DNA of 12,153 nucleotides, taken from an uncultured bacterium (GTDB lineage: Bacteria; CSSED10-310; CAZUFC01). Within the stretch, counting starts at the first letter, position 1. Each line of letters begins with the position of its first letter. The stretch lies in contig CAZUFC010000036.1 of the NCBI GenBank assembly GCA_964619725.1, forward strand, positions 1 through 12,153, in the 5' to 3' direction. Made by a program: the position numbers and the translations under genes. This document shows positions 1 through 12,153 of the stretch, one piece after another. Under the pieces are notes generated by a model. That model worked only from the letters and a program-made list of their open reading frames with translations. It ran no database searches and had not been told where the DNA came from.

Positions 1-87
1 GTTGTCTTTGGGCTGGTTGGGGGTATAGTTGGGTTGTCTTTGGGCTGGTTGGGGGTATAGTTGGGTTGTCTTTGGGCTGGTTGGGGG
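1..87. repeat. 32-bp G-rich tandem repeat, 2.7 copies, possibly truncated by the window edge
   Basis: Unit GTTGTCTTTGGGCTGGTTGGGGGTATAGTTGG occurs exactly at 1-32 and 33-64, and its first 23 nt recur at 65-87. There are no spacers. Confidence 0.95.
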
Positions 88-170
88 AATCACCTCCTTT
101 ACATATCCTGACATTGATCGGTAAAATTTTTGAACCGTTTAAACAACACACAACCAGATTAAAAATTTTT

Positions 171-231
171 GGGACTGATCAAACCGGGGTTTCACTTCTT
201 TCACTGATCAAAAATGAGGGACTGATCAAAA
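171..231. repeat. Three direct repeats of ACTGATCAAA (possible protein-binding sites)
   Basis: ACTGATCAAA at 174-183, 203-212 and 221-230. The first and third extend to GGGACTGATCAAA. Confidence 0.8.
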
Positions 232-254
232 CGTGGTTACAATTTTTTCAAAAC

Positions 255-401
255 ATTTGACAGTTTGTTTAAGTAATCGGGGGCGGTATCGGGATCGGTA
301 TCGGGTTCGCAATCGCAATCGAAATCCAAATCGAAATCGAAAAAAAATGATGGGATATTCCGCAGAATTGTAACCTCAATAGACGAATTTTCGATCAATG
401 C
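255..401 (+). repeat. Left copy of a long imperfect inverted repeat containing an (ATCGNN)x11 hexamer array
   Basis: Aligns with the reverse complement of 12018-12153. The hexamer array lies at 276-341. The unique part 342-401 matches at about 50 of 61 positions by hand count. Confidence 0.88.
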
Positions 402-460
402 CGAAAATTTAAACATGCAAGAGTAGAAAGGACGAGTGTTTTATTTACCTTTATGAGCGA

Positions 461-1873
461 TTATCCTCGAAGAACAGCCAGTGCGCCTTTAATCATGGTC
501 AGCGGTTTTATGGTGCGCCGTTTCAGATGTCTCAGGATCAGACGCGGTCTGGCATAGAAACGGAAAACAGCTTGATTTTGAATTTTAATCAGTTCTCGGT
601 CAGTCATATTTTCGGGTGTGAACAGCAATTTATCTTTCTTGTCTGCAGCATGCCAGCTTGAGAAGTATTCCGGTTTTTCCAGGGCTTTCTTTCTGACTTT
701 GATCTGCTCGAACAGTTTCGATCCGGGATAAGGTACGACGCGATTGAATTTGGCGAAGTCACAGTCGAGTTTTAAACTGAATTCAATCGTTTCTTGGCAT
801 GTTTTAACGGTATCTCCCGGAAGTCCCAGCATAAAAAAGCCCAGGCTGACGATTCCCGCTTTTTTGGTCGCTTGCATGGCGTTGTATGCCGCTTTTCTGC
901 TCAAGGGCTTACCGGCTCGCTTCATCACAGACTCGTTTCCCGATTCAAAGCCGTACATGATAAGCCTGAGTCCTGCCTCTTTCATTCTGGCCAGCAATTC
1001 GTAGTCGACCAGGTCCACTCTTGATTCGGTCAACCAGGTCATTTTGTTATGCAATTTTCTTCGGATAAGTTCGTCAGCGATATTAAATCCCTCTTGTCTG
1101 CTGACGGGAAATACCGAATCAACGAAACCGAAATGATTCACTCCGAATCGTTCATGCAACATTTCCGCCTCGTCGACAGCCTTCTCCACGCTTCTTTTCC
1201 TGAATGTCGGGAACATGACGTTCTGCGAGCAGAAGGAGCAGCGGTAGGGACAGCCTCTGGAAGCGGAAACCGGCATGATGACGCCGTTGAAAGAGAGCAT
1301 GGGCGCTGCTTTGTAATGCTTGAGATTCAGCAGGTCCCAGGCTGGAAAGGGCAAGGCGTCCAAATCGTCAACAGGATCGGCATCGCCTGTATAAAAAATG
1401 TTGCCGTTTTTGATGCAGGAAAGACCTTTTACTTTTTCGATGTCCAGGTTTTTCTCAAGAGCGTTCGCCAGTTCCGCCAGAATATATTCTCCTTCGCCGT
1501 GCACTATGAAATCGGCGGCTCCCTGATTAAGCAACTCTTGAGAAAAGTATGCGGCATGAATATTTCCCAGGACGACTTTCAATTTACTGTTTATCTTTCG
1601 TATTTCTGATACGGCATGAACGACGGCCGGCATGGCGGGAGTCAGGCAGGAAAAACCCACCAGATCAGGATCGTTTTTCATTATTTCGTCGACCAGCGTT
1701 TGAGTATCAGACTTATCGGCATACTGGTCGATTATAGATACTTGATGTCCTCTCATTCTCAGGACTGCGGCTATCGAGGCCAAACCGAGCGGTGCGACGG
1801 GAGTCATGAAAGGCCGGAAACGTCCCAGCACTTTTCGCAAATCCGCTCCTGGATTAACCAAGACAATTCTCAT
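461..1873 (-). CDS. Cobalamin-dependent (class B) radical SAM enzyme, probable methyltransferase, 470 aa
   Basis: N-terminal B12-binding-domain hallmarks (APLGLASIAAVL, GNIHA, GEGE), SRGCPYRCSFC CxxxCxxC motif, ESRVD, GFESG and FMLGLPGDT. ATG lies 1 nt after the upstream stop. Confidence 0.92.
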   Translation of the reverse strand: MRIVLVNPGADLRKVLGRFRPFMTPVAPLGLASIAAVLRMRGHQVSIIDQYADKSDTQTLVDEIMKNDPDLVGFSCLTPAMPAVVHAVSEIRKINSKLKVVLGNIHAAYFSQELLNQGAADFIVHGEGEYILAELANALEKNLDIEKVKGLSCIKNGNIFYTGDADPVDDLDALPFPAWDLLNLKHYKAAPMLSFNGVIMPVSASRGCPYRCSFCSQNVMFPTFRKRSVEKAVDEAEMLHERFGVNHFGFVDSVFPVSRQEGFNIADELIRRKLHNKMTWLTESRVDLVDYELLARMKEAGLRLIMYGFESGNESVMKRAGKPLSRKAAYNAMQATKKAGIVSLGFFMLGLPGDTVKTCQETIEFSLKLDCDFAKFNRVVPYPGSKLFEQIKVRKKALEKPEYFSSWHAADKKDKLLFTPENMTDRELIKIQNQAVFRFYARPRLILRHLKRRTIKPLTMIKGALAVLRG

Positions 1874-1874
1874 A

Positions 1875-2675
1875 TCAGACCTTCACAGCGCTGAAAACGA
1901 TGTCGAAATCGCCGCAACGGGAATCGAACGACCTTGCAGCGGCCTGCTCCGTCCTGAATCCATGTTTTTCGAGCAAATATTCCAGTTCGCAGCGTCCCAC
2001 CATTCGTTCCTTCCATTCCAGCACAACAGACCCGGCCGGCGTTCCCCGTTCAGACAAAAACTCAAACGTTAATCTCATCTGGATCGTCTGCTGAAAATAA
2101 TCGATATCGAGGACCCGGGATCGGGCGATAAATGAGCCTTCATTTTCAGGATGCGTGACTTTTACGGGGTGATGCTGGAAGGATTGCACGGCTTTCGGAG
2201 TGAGTATGTTCAGTAAAAATATGCCTCCCGGTTTCAAGGCGCGTCGAACGCCCTGAAGCAACTGAGATTGCTGTTTTTGTCCGGCGAGCAAATGAAAGGT
2301 GGCGCCCAGACAGACTGCCAGGTCAAAGGATTCCTTAAAGGGTAAAAACAGAAAATCCCCCTGTATGAGAGCGGCATTCTTTTTGACGCTGGGCGGCAAT
2401 TTTTGACAGGCGGCATCGGCATACCTCAGCAACTGTTCAGATATATCCAATCCGGCGCTGAATACATTGCGTTTCGCAGTCTCAAACAGAACCCGCCCGT
2501 AACCGCAACCCAACTCCAGCATTCGTGTTCCTGGCCGGCAATGATTCAAAACTGCAAGCACATCAACATCTTCTGAACCTGCCCCAGCTTCCTGCATCAT
2601 CATGGCTCGCCACAGGTCTCCATAGCATTCGTAAAGCCTGTTGTTTTCGTATTTCGGTTTTTTATTGGCGTTCAC
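1875..2675 (-). CDS. Class I SAM-dependent methyltransferase, 266 aa (start uncertain)
   Basis: Motif I LELGCGYGR, GLDIS, QGDF, FDLAVC and LKPGGIF. GTG start with a weak RBS. Confidence 0.9.
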   Translation of the reverse strand: MNANKKPKYENNRLYECYGDLWRAMMMQEAGAGSEDVDVLAVLNHCRPGTRMLELGCGYGRVLFETAKRNVFSAGLDISEQLLRYADAACQKLPPSVKKNAALIQGDFLFLPFKESFDLAVCLGATFHLLAGQKQQSQLLQGVRRALKPGGIFLLNILTPKAVQSFQHHPVKVTHPENEGSFIARSRVLDIDYFQQTIQMRLTFEFLSERGTPAGSVVLEWKERMVGRCELEYLLEKHGFRTEQAAARSFDSRCGDFDIVFSAVKV

Positions 2676-2707
2676 TTCTTCGATTCAGTCCATTCTGCTG
2701 CAGAAAA

Positions 2708-3958
2708 TTACCTTCCGACCAGGAACCTTCTGTAACGCGTCACTTTATAAAATATTTCCGCAATTTCGTCCATCTCTTCGATCGTTCCATTAAGCGCCGG
2801 GTGAGGCAAAAACAGGGTTCTTTTGCAGTAATCTTCGGCGACCGGGCATTCCATTTTCGTAAAATCGTGCTGTCTTTTCTGAAAGGGACAACTGACGGGA
2901 CATTCCTGTTTATCGAACATGCGATTCAGAAAGACAGGATTCTTGTAGACGGGATGCGGATATCCGGGAGCTGCAGGAACGCCTTCAGCGGTTAAGGCTT
3001 TAGCGACAGTCTCCGGCCTGGTTCCCGCGAATTTATTCAGGTCGATCAGCAGGACGAAAGCTGCAACAGCGCTGCGAAAGCCGGGCTTTGAGGCCGGTAA
3101 GGCTTTCCATCCCGGTATTTCTTTTATTTTTTGTCTCAGGTGATCGACGTTTTTTAACCTGTTTTCAATCATACCCGGCAGGCGGTCCAACTGATGATGA
3201 ACCATGGCCGCCTGGAATTCAGTCATCCGGTAGTTGGCGCCGGGGATATAATGAATAAAAGGATGACCGCCGGGTTTACGCCCGTAGTCTATGAGGGCTG
3301 CAGCTCTCTGATAGGTTTCAGAAGAATCCGTAACGATAAGGCCGCCTTCTCCCGCGGACAAAATTTTTCCTTCTGTGAAACTGAACACGCCGGCATGTCC
3401 GAAAGCGCCGGCGGTTTTATCCGATATTTCAGCGAAAGGAGCCTGAGCGCAATCCTCTATGACTTTGATGCCATATTCTTCGGCAATATTTTTTATTCTG
3501 GGCATATCGGCAGGATTTCCCCAAAGATGCACAGGAATAATCGCTTTTGAAGCCTCGGTGACGACACGCGGAATATCGTCGGGATCGATACAGTAAGTTT
3601 CCGGATCGATATCAGCGAACACGGGAACGGCATTGGCTTTCAGAACAGCTCCGGCGGTGGAATAAAATGTCGCCGCCGGCACAATAACTTCATCACCGGG
3701 GCCAATGCGCAAAGCATTCAAGGCCGTTTCCAGTCCTGCGCTGCCGCTTGAAACCGCCAGAGCATGCTTGCTCCCCGTCATGTCGGCAAAAGCCTGTTCC
3801 AGCCGAGCCGTCTTATCTCCTCTGGTCCATCTTGCTGAAGCAGCTATTTCCTTGATTTCTTGCGATAAATAAGACGGATCGACCAATGGAGTCCTTCCGG
3901 GACAGACCCTTATCCGGGGACCGCCGAATAACGCCAGCGGGTTCTTTCCTGTCGGCAT
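2708..3958 (-). CDS. DegT/DnrJ/EryC1/StrS-family PLP-dependent aminotransferase, 416 aa
   Basis: GPGDEVIVPAATF, PVFADID, IIPVHLWG, IEDCAQA, catalytic Lys in SFTEGKILSAGEGG, NYRMTEFQAA. Start re-placed at ATG 3958 (MPTGK), preceded by AGGAAGG and 1 nt after the upstream stop, instead of 4003. Confidence 0.93.
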   Translation of the reverse strand: MPTGKNPLALFGGPRIRVCPGRTPLVDPSYLSQEIKEIAASARWTRGDKTARLEQAFADMTGSKHALAVSSGSAGLETALNALRIGPGDEVIVPAATFYSTAGAVLKANAVPVFADIDPETYCIDPDDIPRVVTEASKAIIPVHLWGNPADMPRIKNIAEEYGIKVIEDCAQAPFAEISDKTAGAFGHAGVFSFTEGKILSAGEGGLIVTDSSETYQRAAALIDYGRKPGGHPFIHYIPGANYRMTEFQAAMVHHQLDRLPGMIENRLKNVDHLRQKIKEIPGWKALPASKPGFRSAVAAFVLLIDLNKFAGTRPETVAKALTAEGVPAAPGYPHPVYKNPVFLNRMFDKQECPVSCPFQKRQHDFTKMECPVAEDYCKRTLFLPHPALNGTIEEMDEIAEIFYKVTRYRRFLVGR

Positions 3959-3959
3959 A

Positions 3960-5273
3960 TTAACCTTCCTCTTTTGCGCCCAATCGCGACGCAGTTTCCA
4001 CAAACAAAGACCGCAAAAAATCGGCGTTGAATCCCTCGCCTTCCATTACCGGATTAAAATAACAGTATTTGTCCCAGTCATAGTGCAAAATATTCAATCC
4101 CATCTCCCGGCTCCGGCAAAACTGCGCCGTCCCTGGAAAGGGCGTGTTCAACCTAAGACAAATCTGAACGCCGTAAAGGTTCTTTAACCTCTCCGCATAG
4201 GCAATGGTCTTCTGCATCGTCGCATGCGTATCGCCGGGCAAACCCAACATGAAATAACAAAATACCGTTATTCCTGCATCTTTCAACAGATTTATTGCCG
4301 GTTCGACATCCTTCAATCTTAACTTCTTATTAATTCCCTCCAGAATATCCTGATCGCCGCTTTCTATGCCTATCTTTACCTTACGGCAACCTGCCACAGC
4401 CATTAATTCAATCAGTTCGGCGTCCAGAGCATCTATCCGGGTCTGACATTCCCAGGTCACATCTTCCAGATTCTCCGACATCAACTTAAGCAACATTATC
4501 GTTTTTCTCCTGTCATACGAGAAAAACTGATCATAAAAAGTGAAATGCTTCACGCCCTCACGACATAAATACACTATCTCCGAAAAAATGTTATCCGAAC
4601 TCCGGGAACGGATGCCTGATCCGAACATTTCCCTGGAGCAGCAAAACACGCATCGATGAAGGCATCCCCGGCTCCCCGTCAATGCCCCTGAATGACGATA
4701 ATGACCCACAGCAATCAATTCTCTGGCCGGTAAAGGCATCGAATCTAAATTTCGGACGCCTCGCTTTGCAGATTCTATAACCATTTTTCCATCATTATTA
4801 CTGTATGCCAGTCCGGGAATTTTGAATCCTGCCTCTTTCGCCTTGCCGCATCTCATGAGTTCCAGCAGCTCAATTAAACTCGAATCAGCCTCTCCGGCCA
4901 GAACGTAATCCGCTGTTCCCGGTTCGAGAAATTCTTCTGCGCAGAACGTCGTATGAACTCCTCCCGCCACGATCACGGCATTCGTCGATTTTCTTATTTC
5001 TTTTATGACATCCCTGGCCCGGCACGCGGTTTCGGTGTGTACGCTTATGCCGGCAACCCACGGATTTATTGTTCGTATTTTTTCTGTGAAATCCCGGCGA
5101 CTGACGTCCCGGTTTATCATGTCCATGACATGAGGTTCATAACCGTGCATACGCAACCTTGAAGCCAGGTAGAGCAACCCCAGGGGCGGCGAAGAGTGTA
5201 TTCCGTCCCGGCGATAAGCCAAATCGTAGAATTTCCTTAATGGCGGCTGTATCAGTAATACACGTTCTTTCAA
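3960..5273 (-). CDS. Cobalamin-dependent (class B) radical SAM enzyme, 437 aa
   Basis: PPLGLLYLASRL, GGVHTT, GEAD, SRGCLHRCVFC, TRID, GIESG and FMLGLPGDT. TTG start with GAGGA upstream. Confidence 0.92.
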   Translation of the reverse strand: MKERVLLIQPPLRKFYDLAYRRDGIHSSPPLGLLYLASRLRMHGYEPHVMDMINRDVSRRDFTEKIRTINPWVAGISVHTETACRARDVIKEIRKSTNAVIVAGGVHTTFCAEEFLEPGTADYVLAGEADSSLIELLELMRCGKAKEAGFKIPGLAYSNNDGKMVIESAKRGVRNLDSMPLPARELIAVGHYRHSGALTGSRGCLHRCVFCCSREMFGSGIRSRSSDNIFSEIVYLCREGVKHFTFYDQFFSYDRRKTIMLLKLMSENLEDVTWECQTRIDALDAELIELMAVAGCRKVKIGIESGDQDILEGINKKLRLKDVEPAINLLKDAGITVFCYFMLGLPGDTHATMQKTIAYAERLKNLYGVQICLRLNTPFPGTAQFCRSREMGLNILHYDWDKYCYFNPVMEGEGFNADFLRSLFVETASRLGAKEEG

Positions 5274-5276
5274 CGA

Positions 5277-5594
5277 TTAATCTTCCTCGGAAAATGTGGC
5301 CGTTTCAAAAGATATAAGCCTTATTTTCAATAAAGCATCCAGAAATTCAAAAACATGACATTGCAATTCCTCATCCGTCACCTTTTCGTCTTTATACCGT
5401 TCGATCACCTTATCCACGATATCGCCGACAGTATTCGATTCATCGATCATTTCCCATATTTCCGCTGCAGTATGATTCAATCGTTGCTCCATTTCACCGA
5501 ATATGATTATGGAACCGTCATCTTCTTTTTTCCACAGGAACGTTTCTTTTCTGGGCGTCTTTTTCAGCCATTCATTAAGAGCGGAATCTTCCAT
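5277..5594 (-). CDS. Stand-alone PqqD-family RiPP recognition element (RRE), 105 aa
   Basis: Short beta-strands followed by LNHTAAEIWEMIDESNTVGDIVDKVIERY...VFEFLDALLKIRLI, the typical PqqD pattern. GAGGA RBS 5 nt before the ATG. Confidence 0.9.
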   Translation of the reverse strand: MEDSALNEWLKKTPRKETFLWKKEDDGSIIIFGEMEQRLNHTAAEIWEMIDESNTVGDIVDKVIERYKDEKVTDEELQCHVFEFLDALLKIRLISFETATFSEED

Positions 5595-5595
5595 T

Positions 5596-5814
5596 TTAAT
5601 CCTCGCTTGCCTTAACGGGTATAATTTCTTTTATTTCTTTTAACGGACACCAGACAGAGAATCCCGTATCCCGGTCCAATTGCACCAGGATGCCTTCTTC
5701 GGAAGTTCCGGGATGATCGTGAAAACCGTACAGAATACCCGAAAACGACCCGTTCCGCTCTGTTCTTAACAGAATCCTGCTCCCGGCAATTTCCGTTATT
5801 TGGTCCCTGTTCAT
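5596..5814 (-). CDS. Small hypothetical protein, 72 aa, possible Sm/LSm-like beta-barrel
   Basis: AAAGGA RBS 7 nt upstream. It fills the gap between its neighbours (12 nt and 1 nt). The segment GSRILLRTERNGSFSGILYGF resembles the Sm1 pattern. Confidence 0.8.
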   Translation of the reverse strand: MNRDQITEIAGSRILLRTERNGSFSGILYGFHDHPGTSEEGILVQLDRDTGFSVWCPLKEIKEIIPVKASED

Positions 5815-5826
5815 CCCCGTTTCCTT

Positions 5827-7707
5827 TCAAGCGCCTTCGGGCAATCCTGTCATCATGGTCCGTGCTGTTCTGTCCGCACTGTCATCACTGAGCGGCGAGG
5901 TTTGGAATTCAGGCGTCCTGGATATCATCGGCGCTATTATTTTTCTTCGGATTCTTTCAGCTTTTCCGGCTGCATGCTGACCGGCGGCATCGCTGATAAT
6001 TTCATCCCAGCTTCTGTAGTTCAGTTCGCTCATCAGTTCAAAAGCCTCTTCATCTACGGATGTCAGTTTCGAGTTAAAAAGGTCAAAGACAAAATAACCG
6101 TTTTTCCATTTAAAAGGAAATATTTTCAGGCTTTTCGGACCTATTGTTTTTGTAAGCCGGTCCTGCCAGCGATTCAAAAAATCGTCAGCAGCCTTAAAAC
6201 GTTTTTCGAATTTTCTTACCGCTTCACGTAAGGAATAGAATCCCGGAACAGAATGCTCCGTCAAACCGATCAATTCTTCCAGGAAGTCCACTTCAGCCTC
6301 ATTCAACATACTAGTCAGAAAATGAAATTGATTGATCGCCTGCCTGGTGCGGGCCTTTCCTATTATATTTCTCCAGGGAATTGCATCAACTTCGATTCTT
6401 CTGGCCCGTCTAACGAAATTATGCATATATATTTTAGCGATAACGACCAGGCAATGGAAAACAAAAGCGATTCTCTCGTCTTTGAATCGGAAATGATATA
6501 AAAAACCCTCGCGAAAAAGGACTCCCGCCTTCTTCAAATCATCCATAACAGGCACATTGGAAAAGAGATAAAGGAAATTGGCGACGGTGACCAGGACGCT
6601 TTTTTTCCTTATTCTCTCCTTGTAGAAGTTCACAGTGGCTTTTAATTCCTGGAACGTCGTAAAAGGATCGAAAGCGATGTAGCCGATGGCTGAATTCACC
6701 TGAAGACTATCCAGTATTTCCAGGGCTTTTTCATTATCCCTGACGGTTTGTCCTTTTCTGTACATCCTGAGTTGACGGGGATTAACGGATTCTATGCCCA
6801 GGAATACGGATTGCAGTCCCACCTTTTTGAGCGTTTCGATTGTTTTGTAATCCACCTGGGAAGCCCTCACCGGCAGATTTATCTTCACCGGTATTTTTAA
6901 CTTCGTCATGGCCCTGTAAAGATCGTAGATGCGTTCTTTGGACTCTTTTCCAGGTACAATGAAATTATCGTCCACAAAACTGATGACGTTCAATTCGGGA
7001 AACCGGTCAAGCAATATGTTCATTTCAGCAACGATATTTTCGGCGCTGCGCGTTCTCCATATGCTGCCGGGAGAAGCGCCGTAGAATTTTCGTATGGCGC
7101 AGAATGCGCATCGCGCCGTGCAGCCTCTATCGGTCAACAGCGATATCTGCTCCCGCCCCAGGATCGTCCGTCTTGCATTCGGACGCAAAGGAAACGGCAG
7201 TTCATCCAGGTTTTCGATAAGAGGAGTCGGCGGATTGATCGTTATGTTTGACCCGTCGCGGTAAGCGATGCCGGAAACGCTGCGATGATTTTCCCCGCGA
7301 CGCAATTTTTCCATCAATTCCTTTATCGTTCTTTCACCCTCGCCGTACACGACGATATCGACGGAAGCCGCTTTTTCCATAAGTTCCCGAATGTTTCCCG
7401 TGGGTCCGTATCCTCCCATTATTATCACGCCTTCGTATCCTTGGCGTCGAATCTTCTCCGATATTTCAACCACGCAATCCAGGGATTGATCCAACGCCGT
7501 GAATCCCACGGCGCCCGGCGACAGTTCGCAGATCAACCGGATCGTCTGGTCCCGGCTCAGCTCATTCATTATCATGTTTACTATCAGCGTATCGAATCCC
7601 GCCTCCTCTAAAACCGCAGCCAGATATCCCACACCCAGATGATCAATGTAATATTCCGGGGTCTCGAATTCCGGTATGACTAAAATGATGTCGGAAACTG
7701 GTTTCAT
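5827..7707 (-). CDS. Cobalamin-dependent radical SAM enzyme with C-terminal extension (probable RRE), 626 aa
   Basis: HLGVGYLAAVL, GGYGPT, GEGE, RGCTARCAFC, FVDDNF and LGIES. Start re-placed at ATG 7707 (MKPVSDIILV), which overlaps the CPBP stop as TGATG. The ORF-track start at 7935 lies inside the upstream gene. Confidence 0.9.
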   Translation of the reverse strand: MKPVSDIILVIPEFETPEYYIDHLGVGYLAAVLEEAGFDTLIVNMIMNELSRDQTIRLICELSPGAVGFTALDQSLDCVVEISEKIRRQGYEGVIIMGGYGPTGNIRELMEKAASVDIVVYGEGERTIKELMEKLRRGENHRSVSGIAYRDGSNITINPPTPLIENLDELPFPLRPNARRTILGREQISLLTDRGCTARCAFCAIRKFYGASPGSIWRTRSAENIVAEMNILLDRFPELNVISFVDDNFIVPGKESKERIYDLYRAMTKLKIPVKINLPVRASQVDYKTIETLKKVGLQSVFLGIESVNPRQLRMYRKGQTVRDNEKALEILDSLQVNSAIGYIAFDPFTTFQELKATVNFYKERIRKKSVLVTVANFLYLFSNVPVMDDLKKAGVLFREGFLYHFRFKDERIAFVFHCLVVIAKIYMHNFVRRARRIEVDAIPWRNIIGKARTRQAINQFHFLTSMLNEAEVDFLEELIGLTEHSVPGFYSLREAVRKFEKRFKAADDFLNRWQDRLTKTIGPKSLKIFPFKWKNGYFVFDLFNSKLTSVDEEAFELMSELNYRSWDEIISDAAGQHAAGKAERIRRKIIAPMISRTPEFQTSPLSDDSADRTARTMMTGLPEGA

Positions 7708-8546
7708 CAGGATAAAAGCGCCCCAAAGAAACGATAATTGTCGATCAGTCCATGCACGGCTATTCCGGGTATTAAACTGCCCGAACGACGATAGACCTTG
7801 CACAGCGACGCATGAAAAATCAATACGGCCATTCCGTAAAAAACCGCATGCCCAACGCCGCCGACCTGAGCCTCTATCAGGACCGTACGCCAATGACTCA
7901 ACAAGTAAACCGCACCCGATAAAACAACAGCCCATCCCCGGGAAAACCTCCCCAAAAACGCAGGAAACAAAAATCCCCGATAATAGAACTCTTCCAGCAA
8001 AGCTATGTAAATAAAACCTCTGAATACTGCAGCCGCTGCGCCTGCTCCGGAAACAGGACGAACAGGAGGCGCCATCCCGGACATGAAAAGGATTCTCAGA
8101 AGCGTCGGAGCGATTCCCAGGAGCGTCAGCAGCAGAAGTCTTTTATCTATGACGAACCCTATATCCTTCAGGCCGGAACGGTCCAGGAGCATACGCCAGA
8201 TGAATGGAACAACGAGCATAATTAGAACCATAATGCTGGGAACCAGCATCGCCCTGGGCCCGGGAATTCCGCTTCCCGCAGGGAAATCCTTTAACAGCAC
8301 GGCCTTTCTTTGAACGGCCGTCAGTATTAAAGGAAGGAAACTGAAAAGCATCAACTCCAGGGGGCTGTATTTTCTTATCTCAATTTTTTTCCTGATTCGA
8401 GGATAAACCACGAAAGTTATGCAAAGGAATCCCAGCATATGCGTGATCGCATAAGGGTCTATAATGATCAGACTTATAACGTAAAGCAAGACGGCGCGGA
8501 ATGGATCGCTGATATAATTTTCAATTCTGGAAAGTATATTTTTCAT
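7707..8546 (-). CDS. CPBP (Abi/type II CAAX) family intramembrane glutamic protease, 279 aa
   Basis: Multiple hydrophobic segments with the family motifs EExxxR (EEFYYRG), F/YxxxH (YLLSH) and HxxxD/N (HGLIDN). Confidence 0.9.
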   Translation of the reverse strand: MKNILSRIENYISDPFRAVLLYVISLIIIDPYAITHMLGFLCITFVVYPRIRKKIEIRKYSPLELMLFSFLPLILTAVQRKAVLLKDFPAGSGIPGPRAMLVPSIMVLIMLVVPFIWRMLLDRSGLKDIGFVIDKRLLLLTLLGIAPTLLRILFMSGMAPPVRPVSGAGAAAAVFRGFIYIALLEEFYYRGFLFPAFLGRFSRGWAVVLSGAVYLLSHWRTVLIEAQVGGVGHAVFYGMAVLIFHASLCKVYRRSGSLIPGIAVHGLIDNYRFFGALLS

Positions 8547-8552
8547 TTCAGG

Positions 8553-9782
8553 TCAGTTCGGACCGGCAGCGTTTTTCGATTCACCCGGCAGGCTTCCTGT
8601 TATGATCATGCCCAGCAAAGGCAGAAGAGGATAAGTTTTAAACAATATCTCAATGACTGCGGCGGATTGAAGCATAAGGGTTGCGATGAGGAGTGAGACG
8701 CCGCCGGTTACGTTCATGACGAACATAATGACGGAATTTTCCAGGCCGCTTTCCACACGAATGAATTCCCGCAAGTTGGAGAAGATGAGATTCGACATAT
8801 ACGCTTCAGCAGCCATAAATAATCCCCAGCATATGATTTTGACGGGATCGTTGCGAAAAAACAAGGCGATGACGACCGAAATGAGCGTCATAGCCGCGAA
8901 AACCAGCCTGGAATGACTCAGTTTTATTCTGTCCGTGGACTGAAGCATTACCGATGATACCAGGAAAATAACGAAAGACAGCAGGACCAGTAGTCCGACA
9001 GAGGGCATTTCTTCAGCAGAACTTATTTTCAGCAAATGCACCGGTATGGCGAAAAGGTATATCGCTCCGCCATATCGCACAATCGATATCATTACGAACA
9101 ATCTGACTGTCCGGCGATTCATTATGCGGGCTATGGTTTTCCATCCTGACAGAATCGTTAGATCGGAAGCTGATTTCAGCTTTATTTTTCTTACTCCGAA
9201 AAAGAAAAGGAATGCCGCTGCGATTATGCCCAGAGCGCCGGCGATAAAGGGAAGGATGGTTTTTACTCCGTAAAGCGACATGCCGACGGGATACCCCAGC
9301 CAGCCCAGTCCTGAAAAGATCATTATGCCGATGTAAAAACGGGAAATCAGATCAGGCGGCAATGTGGAAAGCGTAAAAACTCGACCGGCCGTCTGACTTA
9401 AAGCCACGGCCATGCCTGCTGTGAAACCCAGCAGTGCGAGCAGCATAAAATTTTCAATGAAAAAGAAAAATAATATCGGCACGACGGAATAAAGGAGCAA
9501 AGCTATCGTCAATATCCTGCGATAATTGTATTTTTCCACCAGGTATCCTGCGAAAGGACATAATAACGCCATCCCCCAATAGGATGTCATCAGTAAAAAT
9601 GAAATATTCGAAAGCGTATACTCATTATCCAGCAAAAAACGTATCTCTGCCAGATACAGTATCGACCCCGCAATGCTCAATACTACGTCGCCCAGCAACG
9701 GGTATAAAAAAATTCTCTTTTTTATGATCTCAAGGTATTTTGTTGCAGGCGCAGCTATTGTTTTCTCCAGACCAGCGACCAT
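8553..9782 (-). CDS. MFS-type transporter, 409 aa (likely exporter)
   Basis: About 12 hydrophobic segments in about 400 aa and a motif-A-like loop GYLVEKYNYRR. Overlaps the upstream rSAM by 28 nt. Confidence 0.8.
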   Translation of the reverse strand: MVAGLEKTIAAPATKYLEIIKKRIFLYPLLGDVVLSIAGSILYLAEIRFLLDNEYTLSNISFLLMTSYWGMALLCPFAGYLVEKYNYRRILTIALLLYSVVPILFFFFIENFMLLALLGFTAGMAVALSQTAGRVFTLSTLPPDLISRFYIGIMIFSGLGWLGYPVGMSLYGVKTILPFIAGALGIIAAAFLFFFGVRKIKLKSASDLTILSGWKTIARIMNRRTVRLFVMISIVRYGGAIYLFAIPVHLLKISSAEEMPSVGLLVLLSFVIFLVSSVMLQSTDRIKLSHSRLVFAAMTLISVVIALFFRNDPVKIICWGLFMAAEAYMSNLIFSNLREFIRVESGLENSVIMFVMNVTGGVSLLIATLMLQSAAVIEILFKTYPLLPLLGMIITGSLPGESKNAAGPN

Positions 9783-11179
9783 AAAGCGTTTTCAAGACAT
9801 TCATAGTTGAATCGACAGAAAGGGTCTCTATCCTTCAAATCACCTCTCACCTGATAGGCGCGAGCCCTGCAGCCGCCGTTACAGAATGTTTGCAAATCAC
9901 AGAACGAGCAACCGACAAAATCGAATTTCCGGAGTTTCACATATTTTTCTATTGAAGCATCATGAATGGACTTCATGTCCTTCTCACGAAAATTGCCCAG
10001 GCGAAAATCATCTCGATGAAAAAAAGGACAGGGGAAAACGTCGCCGTTCGGAGCAACGCTCAATATGCTGCAACCCATGCCGCAATTTATTATGTTAACG
10101 CCTTCAATCAGTCCCGTGTAATCGTTCAAACAGGATATGTGCAGCCCGAAATCCGCCGGTTCTCTCCCATGAACGCCTGATGTCGTCAGTAACGTGTTTG
10201 CCTTCTCAGCCGTCTTCTTTAAACCGGCTATGAGACTTTCCCTCTCCGGCGCCCTTTCACCGGCTCCTTCATAACCGTGTACCGGCAACTCAATATTGAC
10301 GCGAAGAAAATTGCATCCCATTTCATAAGCCAGCTCCGCCATCTCCTCCAGGCGTTCAAAATTTCCCGAATGCACCGTGCAGCAAAGACCGATAGAAACG
10401 TCAGAATCCATCTTTAAATTCAACTTCTGAAGCATTTCCACGTTCCGCAACACTCTGTCGAAAACGCCCTCTCCCCTCGTCAAACTGTTCGTCTCCTCGT
10501 CAGGCCCGTCCAGCGATATCTGCACCAGATCGATAAAAGGCAACGCTTCTCTCCATAAGTCCTCGTCGCCGACCGTCCCGTTCGTCGGCACGGTAATGGA
10601 ACCCGCTCCCTTCTCTCTTACGGTCCTCAGTATTTCCGTGAACTGCGGGTGCAGCAGAGGCTCGCCGCCTGTCAGAACTACATTAAGCTGACTGAGAACG
10701 TCCCGGTCCATCCACTCCAGAAGAACTTTCATATCGTCAGGTTGAAGCTCCGTCGCCGCCGCTGTGTCGGATGAACAATCCACATAACAGTAAGGACATG
10801 ATAAATTGCACCGATCAGTCACATGAAGATACAACGTCCTCAAAACCGGATGAACCGTCGCCGGCTTATCGTTATATGAAATCTTCTCCGCTTCCGATTC
10901 TCTGAACGCTATTCCCAGCTCATTCGCCTCGCATAGAAAATTCATTACATCCGGCAGAATGACCGATTTCAAAAGTCCATACTTCGACGACAATTCTTCC
11001 GCCGTCTCTTCAACCGTCAAACCCTTCTCGCAAAGACGCAGAATCTCCGTTCCCACGTCGTTTGTTCTCATCCACCTGGCAGTATCGGGAAATAATATCA
11101 GATACTGAACGCCTCTTTGCCTTACCTCAAATGGATATACTCTAAACCGTTCTCCGGCATCAATGCTCCGACGGCCCAT
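9755..11179 (-). CDS. RRE-radical SAM-SPASM peptide maturase, 474 aa
   Basis: N-terminal PqqD-like domain (NDVGTEILRLCEKGLTVEETAEELSSKYG...DVMNFL), CNLSCPYC, TGGEPLL, QISLDG, and a full SPASM domain: CGMG...GDVFPC...CSFC-x5-CNGGC...DPFC. Confidence 0.93.
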   Translation of the reverse strand: MGRRSIDAGERFRVYPFEVRQRGVQYLILFPDTARWMRTNDVGTEILRLCEKGLTVEETAEELSSKYGLLKSVILPDVMNFLCEANELGIAFRESEAEKISYNDKPATVHPVLRTLYLHVTDRCNLSCPYCYVDCSSDTAAATELQPDDMKVLLEWMDRDVLSQLNVVLTGGEPLLHPQFTEILRTVREKGAGSITVPTNGTVGDEDLWREALPFIDLVQISLDGPDEETNSLTRGEGVFDRVLRNVEMLQKLNLKMDSDVSIGLCCTVHSGNFERLEEMAELAYEMGCNFLRVNIELPVHGYEGAGERAPERESLIAGLKKTAEKANTLLTTSGVHGREPADFGLHISCLNDYTGLIEGVNIINCGMGCSILSVAPNGDVFPCPFFHRDDFRLGNFREKDMKSIHDASIEKYVKLRKFDFVGCSFCDLQTFCNGGCRARAYQVRGDLKDRDPFCRFNYECLENALWSLVWRKQ

Positions 11180-11251
11180 AACGCGCTGTTCTCTCCAGAT
11201 ACTGCAATCCGAGACTGCAATTTTCCAAAAACGGGATGAAATAAATTAAAT

Positions 11252-11428
11252 TTATGAAGCCACGGCGATGCCTATGGCTACTCCGGCAGTCACAGCCGTA
11301 CTGCCCGCGGCTGTGCCTACCACCAGCCCGTCTCCGCAGAATCCGACATTATATTGAGCCTTCTCCGTGCCGCCCATGCCGGCTGCATTTATTTTCGGCG
11401 TAGTATAGATGACAGGTTTTACATACAT
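11252..11428 (-). CDS. RiPP precursor peptide A2, 58 aa: MYVKPVIYTTPKINAAGMGGTEKAQYNVGFCGDGLVVGTAAGSTAVTAGVAIGIAVAS
   Basis: Translated by hand; shorter than anything in the ORF track. RBS GGGAAAGGA at 11445-11437, TAA stop. 49/58 identical to A1. Confidence 0.9.
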   Translation of the reverse strand: MYVKPVIYTTPKINAAGMGGTEKAQYNVGFCGDGLVVGTAAGSTAVTAGVAIGIAVAS

Positions 11429-11476
11429 TAATCCGATCCTTTCCCGTGATCAATCGGTCCGATTCGTCCTCTTTTC

Positions 11477-11505
11477 TTTTAACATGAAAAGAGAAGACAA
11501 GTCAA
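11477..11505 (-). promoter_or_regulatory. Putative promoter-like motif upstream of A2 (TTGACT-N15-TGTTAAAA)
   Basis: Near-consensus -35 hexamer, with the same layout as the motif upstream of A1. The -10 match is weak. Confidence 0.35.
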
Positions 11506-11533
11506 GAAAACGGCATTTTTTCGGAACGTTCGA

Positions 11534-11713
11534 TCACGAGGCTACGGCGACTCCTATGGCTACGCCGGCAGTGAGGGCCGTGCTGCCCGCTGAAGCGTAT
11601 ACCACTAAAGAATCTCCGCAGAATCCGACGCTGTACTGCGCCTTCTCCGTGCCGCCCATACCCGCGACGTTGATTTTTGGAGTCGAATAAATGACGGGTT
11701 TTACATACATCAT
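11534..11713 (-). CDS. RiPP precursor peptide A1, 59 aa (58 aa if started at 11710): MMYVKPVIYSTPKINVAGMGGTEKAQYSVGFCGDSLVVYASAGSTALTAGVAIGVAVAS
   Basis: Translated by hand. Same RBS GGGAAAGGA at 11727-11719, TGA stop. Paralog of A2 with mostly synonymous differences. Confidence 0.9.
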   Translation of the reverse strand: MMYVKPVIYSTPKINVAGMGGTEKAQYSVGFCGDSLVVYASAGSTALTAGVAIGVAVAS

Positions 11714-11756
11714 TCGCGTCCTTTCCCTTACTGCGCAATATCTCCATCTTTTATTG

Positions 11757-11800
11757 ATTAACAGATTTCTCCGGTTAAGTCAAATTGTCAACTTTTGACT
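11757..11800 (-). promoter_or_regulatory. Putative operon promoter (TTGACT-N14-TGTTAAT) overlapped by the palindrome AGTCAAA-N9-TTTGACT
   Basis: Minus-strand TTGACT at 11783-11778 and TTGACA at 11791-11786. Perfect 7-bp inverted arms at 11778-11784 and 11794-11800. Confidence 0.45.
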
Positions 11801-12017
11801 ATAATCATCCTGGCGTTTTTAATCGCAGTGTTTTTAAGGATTTCCAAAGTATCAATTGCGGTGGTGATTATTGTATCAAGAAAATTGTGTTCCGGTGTTC
11901 CGTGGCTCAGAGCCCTGCCGAAACTCTTATGAAAAAAATATTTATTGTCCGCGAAACTTCGCGAATCTACGCGAAAAAGAGCAGAGCCATGTAAAGCAAA
12001 GAAAACATGGAAACGGA

Positions 12018-12153
12018 GCATTGATCAAAAATGGGTCTTTTGAGGTTACATTTTTTTCCGAATATTCCATCATTTTATTTCGATTTCGATCCCGATTACG
12101 ATACCGATTGCGATACCGATGCCGACCCCGATTATCGAAAAAAACTGTCGAAT
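12018..12153 (-). repeat. Right copy of the inverted repeat, with an (ATCGNN)x9 array; runs to the window edge
   Basis: Its reverse complement reads ATTCGACAGTTTTTTTCGATAATCGGGGTCGGC...ATCGAAATCGAAATAAAATGATGGAATATTC...TGTAACCTCAAAAGACCCATTTTTGATCAATGC, matching 255-401. Confidence 0.88.

Follow-up and report, generated by a model that had tools for sequence, protein, structure and literature searches.

Tandem small genes A1 and A2 and selection on their reading frame

The DNA analyzed here (hereafter the window) covers positions 1–12,153 of the 66-kb contig CAZUFC010000036.1 of an uncultured bacterium of the phylum CSSED10-310. Near its right end, on the minus strand, lie two small genes in tandem, designated A1 and A2, which are the subject of this analysis. 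The two copies form a repeat of 190 nt with 77% nucleotide identity that runs from a shared ribosome-binding site (RBS), GGGAAAGGA, exactly to the stop codons, while neither the upstream nor the downstream flanks align between the copies. The stop codons stand at the same position and differ, TGA in A1 and TAA in A2, as a first-pass annotation of the window had noted. The A1 frame opens with ATGATG and gives 59 amino acids from the ATG at 11713 or 58 from the second ATG at 11710. The RBS, identical in both genes as reported before, is spaced 8 nt from the start of A2 and from the second ATG of A1, so both products are probably 58 amino acids long. The description of the genes as unannotated holds for the open reading frame (ORF) track used at the time, from which they are absent, but not beyond it: both appear in the ORF listing once its threshold is set below 58 amino acids, and both are identical to called proteins in a public protein collection.

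A recount of the codon-by-codon comparison returned the earlier figures exactly, with 29 of the 58 codons differing, 20 by synonymous changes and nine by replacements, and no indels. At the nucleotide level, the 39 differences among 174 positions are split 8/4/27 over codon positions 1/2/3, and the chance of at least 27 of 39 differences falling at one given codon position is 5e-6. The Nei–Gojobori method yielded a non-synonymous divergence (dN) of 0.092 and a synonymous divergence (dS) of 1.29, the latter near saturation, so that the resulting dN/dS of 0.07 is approximate only. A Fisher test of synonymous versus non-synonymous sites gave p = 2.6e-12, and the proportion of synonymous differences (pS) between the copies is 0.62. 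Only one of the six frames, the minus-strand A1/A2 frame, is free of stop codons in both copies. Both frames are under strong protein-level purifying selection, and the proposal that this minus-strand frame is truly translated is supported by the third-position excess, the low dN/dS and the single open frame. The pair also illustrates that two paralogous copies alone can validate a tiny gene when homologues are absent.

The encoded peptides are divided into two unlike parts. All five charged residues fall within residues 1–33, no basic residue follows residue 23 in either peptide, and residues 34–58 form an uncharged tail of Ala/Val/Gly/Ser/Thr type with a mean hydropathy of 1.5–1.6; dN/dS is 0.02 for the first part and 0.18 for the tail. 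The blocks GMGGTEKAQY and VGFCGD and the terminal VAS were again found to be invariant, and the single cysteine of each peptide, C31, lies within VGFCGD. Four of the nine replacements do fall in residues 34–40, but the hot spot that had been read into them is not significant, since a scan statistic gave P = 0.19 for at least four of nine changes in some 7-residue window. Small-xxx-small spacing is seen in A2 (G34, G38, G42 and G49, G53, A57), where A1 has S34 and Y38.

A contig from a second sample bridges the A2 start, the spacer and A1 (11405–11670) with zero differing letters, and the tandem is therefore not an artefact of a single assembly. Over the peptides, the contigs of all the other three samples are free of differing letters (depth about 3), and the DNA is present in four DNA runs of one microbial-mat study. 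RNA folding of the A1–A2 spacer and of the region after A2 was no better than that of shuffled sequences (z = −0.83 and −0.09, respectively).

The A1/A2 operon and the relatives of its enzymes

A1 and A2 stand at the head of a minus-strand operon (461–11713) of 12 tightly packed genes, neighbors being co-oriented and spaced by −28 nt (an overlap) to +72 nt (Table 1). A gap of 72 nt separates A2 from a co-oriented radical S-adenosylmethionine (SAM) enzyme with a SPASM domain and a fused PqqD domain, hereafter the maturase. The selection on the two frames, the shared RBS, the adjoining co-oriented maturase and the tight coupling of the genes together make it likely that A1 and A2 are translated, tandemly duplicated precursor genes of a radical-SAM-dependent operon for a ribosomally synthesized peptide that is modified post-translationally (RiPP). 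The earlier suggestion of precursors made by shared enzymes fits this genomic context, and most likely A1 and A2 are two congeners of one radical-SAM-modified RiPP processed by one enzyme set.

Table 1. Features of the A1/A2 operon and its ribosome-binding sites, listed from the operon head; positions refer to the window.
Feature	Position	Strand	Details
RBS GGGAAAGGA of A1	11719..11727	−	8 nt before the ATG at 11710; paralogous similarity begins here
Putative precursor gene A1	11534..11710	−	58 aa + TGA stop; open frame, dN/dS 0.07 vs A2, RBS spacing as in A2
RBS GGGAAAGGA of A2	11437..11445	−	8 nt before the ATG at 11428
Putative precursor gene A2	11252..11428	−	58 aa + TAA stop; 84% amino-acid identity to A1
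Radical SAM/SPASM maturase, 474 aa	9755..11179	−	Pfam: PqqD 26–90, Radical_SAM 120–283, SPASM 366–427
Major facilitator superfamily (MFS) transporter, 409 aa, likely exporter	8553..9782	−	MFS_1 1.5e-12; start overlaps maturase gene by 28 nt
CPBP/Rce1-like intramembrane glutamic protease, 279 aa	7707..8546	−	PF02517 5e-13
B12-binding radical SAM enzyme, 626 aa	5827..7707	−	ATG overlaps CPBP stop by 1 nt; OxsB 6.6e-18, TokK
72-aa ORF	5596..5814	−	No Pfam family; gaps of 12 and 1 nt to the 626-aa B12-binding radical SAM and PqqD-like genes
Stand-alone PqqD-like peptide-recognition protein, 105 aa	5277..5594	−	PF05402 1.9e-11
B12-binding radical SAM enzyme, 437 aa	3960..5273	−	AprD4 2.1e-26, TsrM 9.3e-14
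DegT/DnrJ/EryC1-type pyridoxal phosphate (PLP) aminotransferase	2708..3958	−	PF01041 8e-99; BtrR 2c7t 8e-56
Class I SAM methyltransferase, 266 aa	1875..2675	−	CorZ 9sot 1.4e-15, CypM 7wzg 1.9e-10
B12-binding radical SAM enzyme, 470 aa, last operon gene	461..1873	−	AprD4 1.3e-20, OxsB, CysS, TsrM

The CxxxCxxC motif is visible in all four radical enzymes. In the maturase, C124, C128 and C131 as well as the SPASM cysteines are invariant across 39 homologues, and its best solved relatives are the anaerobic sulfatase maturase anSME (1.3e-16), the thioether-forming CteB (1.6e-16) and PqqE. The NCBIfam models that score best on it are those of StsB (120 bits, cut-off 625) and MftC (TIGR03962; 118 bits, cut-off 265), with the PapB and SCIFF maturase models at 95 and 86.5 bits against cut-offs of 340 and 425. 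The relatives of the three B12-binding enzymes (AprD4, OxsB, CysS, TsrM, TokK) mix dehydratase, rearrangement and methyltransferase chemistries, and the model for RiPP B12-dependent radical SAM C-methyltransferases, TIGR03975, gave 122, 74 and 81 bits versus a cut-off of 281.85.

The aminotransferase most resembles BtrR and related glutamine:2-deoxy-scyllo-inosose aminotransferases, and its lysine aligns with K192 of BtrR, which we take to be the PLP-carrying residue. Its ORF extends to a TTG at 4003, the ATG at 3958 being the likelier start. The match of the methyltransferase to CorZ is near full length, and its second solved relative is CypM, the N-terminal methyltransferase of cypemycin. 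Its best NCBIfam model is daptide_MTase (NF041820), at 68.4 bits versus 175 and over profile positions 19–168 of 243, which is the SAM-binding core only. CorZ is reported to act on myxarylin once the leader is gone, methylating its free N-terminal amine. Since these three closest characterized relatives all methylate free amines of RiPPs, the operon enzyme is likely an N-methyltransferase of a free peptide amine.

The CPBP protein carries EEFYYR, LLSH and HGLIDN, presumably the motifs of CPBP proteases, and its best NCBIfam models are MrtS (26.7 versus 130 bits), Mrt_core (23.9 versus 100) and MrtJ (17.1 versus 75). The 72-aa ORF may encode an unrecognized accessory protein of the pathway; in the ESM Atlas, the clusters closest to it consist of small hypothetical proteins without names, from bacteria and phages (scores of 0.92–0.93). 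Upstream of A1 no related gene was found: the next ORFs either match no Pfam family or are parts of unrelated systems, among them a kinase of the Ser/Thr type, a glycosyltransferase and an ATPase for secretion. At the other end, a copy of a dispersed repeat lies downstream of the last enzyme gene, so the operon probably ends inside the window although the contig ends there.

Candidate pathway and comparison with known peptide classes

In the pathway that we propose, the charged and near-frozen N-terminal part of the peptides, from residue 1 to about 20–33, would serve as a leader bound by the PqqD-like domain fused to the maturase and by the stand-alone PqqD-like protein, the latter serving the three B12-binding radical SAM enzymes. 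The uncharged tail, residues 34–58, would be the core that is modified. The B12-binding enzymes would most likely C-methylate unactivated carbons of this Val/Ile/Ala/Thr-rich segment or functionalize them in another way. A carbonyl would be formed by one radical enzyme on a conserved residue that bears a hydroxyl or thiol group; the candidates are the invariant Ser58 at the C-terminus, S43/T44/T47 and Cys31. From this carbonyl the DegT-type aminotransferase would produce an amine, which the CorZ/CypM/DapM-like methyltransferase would N-methylate. That an aminotransferase is paired with a methyltransferase for amines speaks for this order of carbonyl, amine and N-methylamine on the peptide, and the daptide route and the decarboxylation by MftC are precedents for it. 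Leader removal, or else immunity of the producer, would fall to the CPBP protease, and the MFS pump would export two closely related, hydrophobic and presumably membrane-active peptides. The specific chemistry on A1 and A2 is a guess, and for the SPASM enzyme, formation of a thioether at Cys31 is an equally good one.

Structure prediction of A2 together with the maturase gave interface (ipSAE) scores of 0.54, 0.57 and 0.53 versus 0.00 for the best of three controls. The mark applied to this score is reached by 58 of 80 solved complexes and by 2 of 110 mismatched pairs, but only seven of the 80, as against both mismatches, reach it with a score of 0.60 or less. The predicted local distance difference test (pLDDT) value of the peptide partner is 34, and the runs share at least 20% of their contacts. 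The prediction thus lends weak support to the pairing of maturase and peptide, and its score may reflect likeness to solved complexes of RiPP recognition elements (RREs) with leaders rather than this pair.

Among characterized systems, the operon would come closest in its working to a mixture of a daptide and a proteusin-type pathway, while being a member of neither. Proteusins of the polytheonamide/aeronamide type are made from precursors such as PoyA by the B12-dependent radical SAM C-methyltransferases PoyB and PoyC and the epimerase PoyD. The likeness to polytheonamide lies in several B12-binding radical SAM enzymes encoded beside an uncharged core rich in Gly, Ala, Val and Thr, which these enzymes would most plausibly alkylate as in proteusins, and in the hydrophobic, membrane-inserting product that is to be expected. 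Proteusins are defined by a long leader resembling nitrile hydratase or Nif11, whereas the leader of A1 and A2 would have at most 33 residues and matches neither domain in Pfam or NCBIfam; the B12-binding enzymes also stay below the TIGR03975 cut-off.

With daptides the operon shares several similar short precursors (here two, 84% identical) with a conserved N-terminal leader motif and an aliphatic core, an invariant hydroxylated C-terminal residue, the logic of an aminotransferase followed by an amine methyltransferase, an intramembrane protease and peptide-recognition domains. Published work on daptides describes Mpa/Dap clusters with several similar short ORFs encoding DapA precursors with aliphatic cores, an oxidative decarboxylase formed by DapC and its RRE partner DapB, the aminotransferase DapD and the N,N-dimethyltransferase DapM; the C-terminal Thr is oxidatively decarboxylated, then transaminated and then dimethylated. 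Unlike daptides, whose class-defining end is Thr, A1 and A2 end in Ser, a residue that the daptide enzyme MpaC reportedly did not accept at the C-terminus. In addition, the PF00465 dehydrogenase (DapC) was not found among the nine scanned operon enzymes and transporters, the aminotransferase is of the DegT type (PF01041) whereas DapD belongs to class III (PF00202), the methyltransferase, although its best NCBIfam family is that of daptides, falls well short of the cut-off and matches the SAM-binding core only, the operon encodes four radical SAM enzymes, and the protease is of the CPBP type, that of daptides being a site-2 protease.

A more specific version of the proposal is that the operon is an oxygen-independent, radical-SAM counterpart of the daptide pathway, assembled from unrelated enzymes and amounting to a new RiPP class. 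The SPASM enzyme would oxidize Ser58 to a β-aldehyde acid that loses CO2, the DegT aminotransferase would make a terminal amine, the methyltransferase would dimethylate it, and the B12-binding enzymes would alkylate the core. The closest solved relatives of the SPASM enzyme include the Ser/Cys-to-aldehyde dehydrogenase anSME, and its second-best NCBIfam model is the C-terminal decarboxylase MftC. We regard this version as unlikely; if true, a barely sampled bacterial phylum in microbial mats would make a pair of hypermodified hydrophobic peptides whose carboxylate is replaced by an amine.

Mycofactocin biosynthesis offers a similar arrangement of a small peptide, a PqqD-like chaperone and a radical SAM/SPASM enzyme, and the MftC model aligned with the maturase over its full length. 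As reported, MftC, itself a radical SAM–SPASM enzyme, oxidatively decarboxylates the C-terminus of MftA, which ends in Val-Tyr (Tyr30); decarboxylation of this type is a reaction that could feed the aminotransferase in the A1/A2 operon. The MftC score is nevertheless less than half of its cut-off, A1 and A2 end in VAS rather than Val-Tyr, and no other mycofactocin genes were seen within the window. Sactipeptides and ranthipeptides likewise have a radical SAM/SPASM enzyme with an N-terminal recognition domain encoded directly after the precursor genes, StsB and CteB are among the best relatives of the maturase, and an invariant Cys sits in the most conserved motif. Unlike in these classes, there is one Cys per peptide, the StsB, SCIFF maturase and PapB models all score far under their cut-offs, and B12-binding radical SAM enzymes, an aminotransferase and a methyltransferase are not part of those classes.

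Two further systems were also compared with the locus. Signals sorted by CPBP-type proteases (MYXO-CTERM, Synerg-CTERM, JDVT-CTERM) are tripartite, with a signature motif, a transmembrane helix and a basic tail, whereas A1 and A2 have no basic residue after position 23 and the Mrt models score below cut-off. Class IIb two-peptide bacteriocins have a double-glycine leader cut by an ATP-binding cassette (ABC) transporter with a C39 peptidase, and GxxxG motifs in both peptides. GMGG is found at residues 17–20 and GxxxG spacing in A2, only partly in A1; the operon encodes neither an ABC transporter nor a C39 peptidase. The literature search found no paper that joins a RiPP, a DegT-type aminotransferase and radical SAM enzymes, its coverage excluding supplementary daptide diversity surveys that possibly hold Ser-ended or radical SAM variants. 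For aminotransferases in RiPPs, the literature names methanobactin aminotransferases and daptides as the known cases. A survey of PLP-dependent proteins of Bacillus subtilis, which the search also retrieved, is unrelated.

Alternative explanations, rarity of the locus and genome setting

Several observations weigh against A1 and A2 as radical-SAM RiPP precursors or loosen the details of the proposal. Every operon enzyme stays under the curated cut-offs of all NCBIfam families with a defined function, and each assigned reaction is therefore a guess. The aminotransferase and two of the B12-binding enzymes are best matched by structures from aminoglycoside pathways (BtrR, AprD4). No peptide homologue was found in any collection searched, so that conservation rests on one paralogue pair whose dS is close to saturation, and no curated precursor family in Pfam or NCBIfam matches A1 or A2. 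The boundary between leader and core is given only as a range, at about residue 20–33, and neither a sigma-70-like promoter nor an intrinsic terminator was detected in 11000–12153.

The polarity of the precursor might be the reverse of that proposed, with residues 1–33, including VGFCGD, as the released product and the hydrophobic tail as a discarded follower or membrane anchor for the CPBP protease. The stronger conservation of the N-terminal part (dN/dS 0.02 versus 0.18) would agree with this, as would tail replacements that preserve hydrophobicity and the position of the sole invariant Cys just before the tail, SPASM maturases with recognition domains often forming Cys thioethers. The best NCBIfam matches of the CPBP protein are indeed the sorting-signal proteases MrtS, Mrt_core and MrtJ, but at 17–27 bits against cut-offs of 75–130, and the tail lacks the basic C-terminal cluster of known sorting signals. 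The invariant VAS end and the conserved S43, T44 and T47 hint at a role of the tail beyond mere anchoring, and three B12-binding enzymes are better suited to an aliphatic substrate; we consider the reversed polarity quite improbable. An obligate two-component peptide, each half inactive alone, is a sub-case of the precursor assignment rather than its rival and seems possible though doubtful. Both copies have long been kept under purifying selection without homogenization (pS 0.62), A2 has the small-xxx-small/GxxxG spacing that A1 has only in part, and synergy among several peptides of one cluster is reported for daptides. The non-significant clustering of the differences speaks against it, and 84% identity together with a single enzyme set fits congeners better. 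Halves of two-peptide bacteriocins and two-component lantibiotics are usually far less alike than that.

The aminoglycoside-type relatives of the aminotransferase and of two B12-binding enzymes could also mean that the enzymes act on a small molecule resembling an aminocyclitol or sugar, A1 and A2 being unmodified small membrane proteins or bacteriocin-like peptides. No precursor family model matches the peptides, and a Bacteriocin_IIc cluster appears among their ESM Atlas matches at rank 11 with a score of 0.77, a lead only. The operon nevertheless holds two PqqD-type domains, one of them fused to the maturase right after the peptide genes, its proteins include no sugar- or cyclitol-building enzyme or glycosyltransferase according to Pfam and NCBIfam, and the predicted A2–maturase complex weakly favors a peptide substrate. 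We therefore judge unmodified peptides very improbable. A non-coding duplication or chance ORFs, for which only the small size and the lack of homologues could be adduced, are effectively refuted by the codon statistics (third-position excess, Fisher test), the sole frame open in both copies and the shared RBS, and can practically be dismissed.

If A1 and A2 are precursors as proposed, they represent a ribosomal-peptide family without detectable relatives, served by four radical SAM enzymes, a sugar-type aminotransferase and an amine methyltransferase, a combination unmatched in the literature searched. Radical-SAM-dependent RiPPs as such are known; the novelty would lie in the precursor family and in the unprecedented set of enzymes. 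The operon would then point to new enzyme chemistry by which amines are installed on peptides in the absence of oxygen, which would interest peptide engineers. It would also provide a first natural-product lead for a phylum that the searched collection represents by just 13 further species genomes. As a lead to new peptide chemistry the finding is well founded, but it rests on a single locus without homologues.

The search for homologues that the first-pass annotation had proposed found none beyond the pair, and dN/dS was obtained from the A1/A2 paralogues instead. In the source genome, only A1, A2 and three matches at E ≥ 0.5 were retrieved, and no peptide homologue turned up in 60 further genomes, of which 13 belong to its phylum and 47 to its domain. 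A word-indexed search of 5.8 billion proteins, limited to lengths of 31–102, passed two of three candidates, both the window's own peptides. A HMMER scan of 1.84 billion representatives with a two-sequence profile returned only the peptide itself and three long proteins (3148, 2278 and 529 aa, with 18, 8 and 4 matched stretches; E from 4e-6 to 3.5e-4), which were taken for composition matches. A pattern scan of metagenomes gave 45 matches and none confirmed, and phmmer of A1 and A2 against 544 small ORFs from 15 loci had a best E of 0.53. The best ESM Atlas score of the peptides was 0.84, a lead only.

The maturase has no relative above about 31–35% identity anywhere searched: two loci in species genomes lie at 27–29%, ten metagenome loci at 26–35% and the nearest proteins at 30–31%, with no paralogue above 31% in its own genome. 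Next to its best relative within the phylum, at 29%, there is no small ORF resembling a precursor gene. The 626-aa B12-binding enzyme has one relative above 36%, a full-length paralogue of 43% identity in the same genome; it is encoded on another contig (C126, 15656–17596), with a membrane protein on one side and a large surface protein rich in Thr and Pro on the other. No other operon genes were found near this paralogue, and tblastn of the 12 operon products gave only matches to B12-binding radical SAM enzymes below E 0.03.

The source genome measures 9.17 Mb in 344 contigs, with a completeness of 90.9% and a contamination of 6.5%. The operon is flanked on both sides by a dispersed repeat of about 130 nt, whose inverted copies at 275–401 and 12018–12150 are 81–86% complementary, and a further copy lies beyond the window at contig positions 12261–12342. 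It consists of a conserved head containing TTGAGGTTACA followed by runs of CGATNC-like hexamers. At least 52 matches on many contigs of the same genome were counted, with 40 of 651 candidate places scored, and its depth in metagenome contigs reaches 2628 versus about 8 for the operon. The repeat is probably a genome-wide intergenic element that is not specific to the cluster, and it ties the contig to the rest of the bin. On the minus strand, a 59-aa ORF (237–416) containing FDFDLDFDCDCEPDTDPDTAPD corresponds to the translated hexamer runs; it matches no Pfam family and most likely does not represent a gene. The contig starts with a tandem array of three 32-nt units (1–96), of which two are identical and the third is 78% identical. 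Directly after the window, a run of N at contig positions 12154–12252 stands between two copies of the dispersed repeat and may be a scaffold gap.

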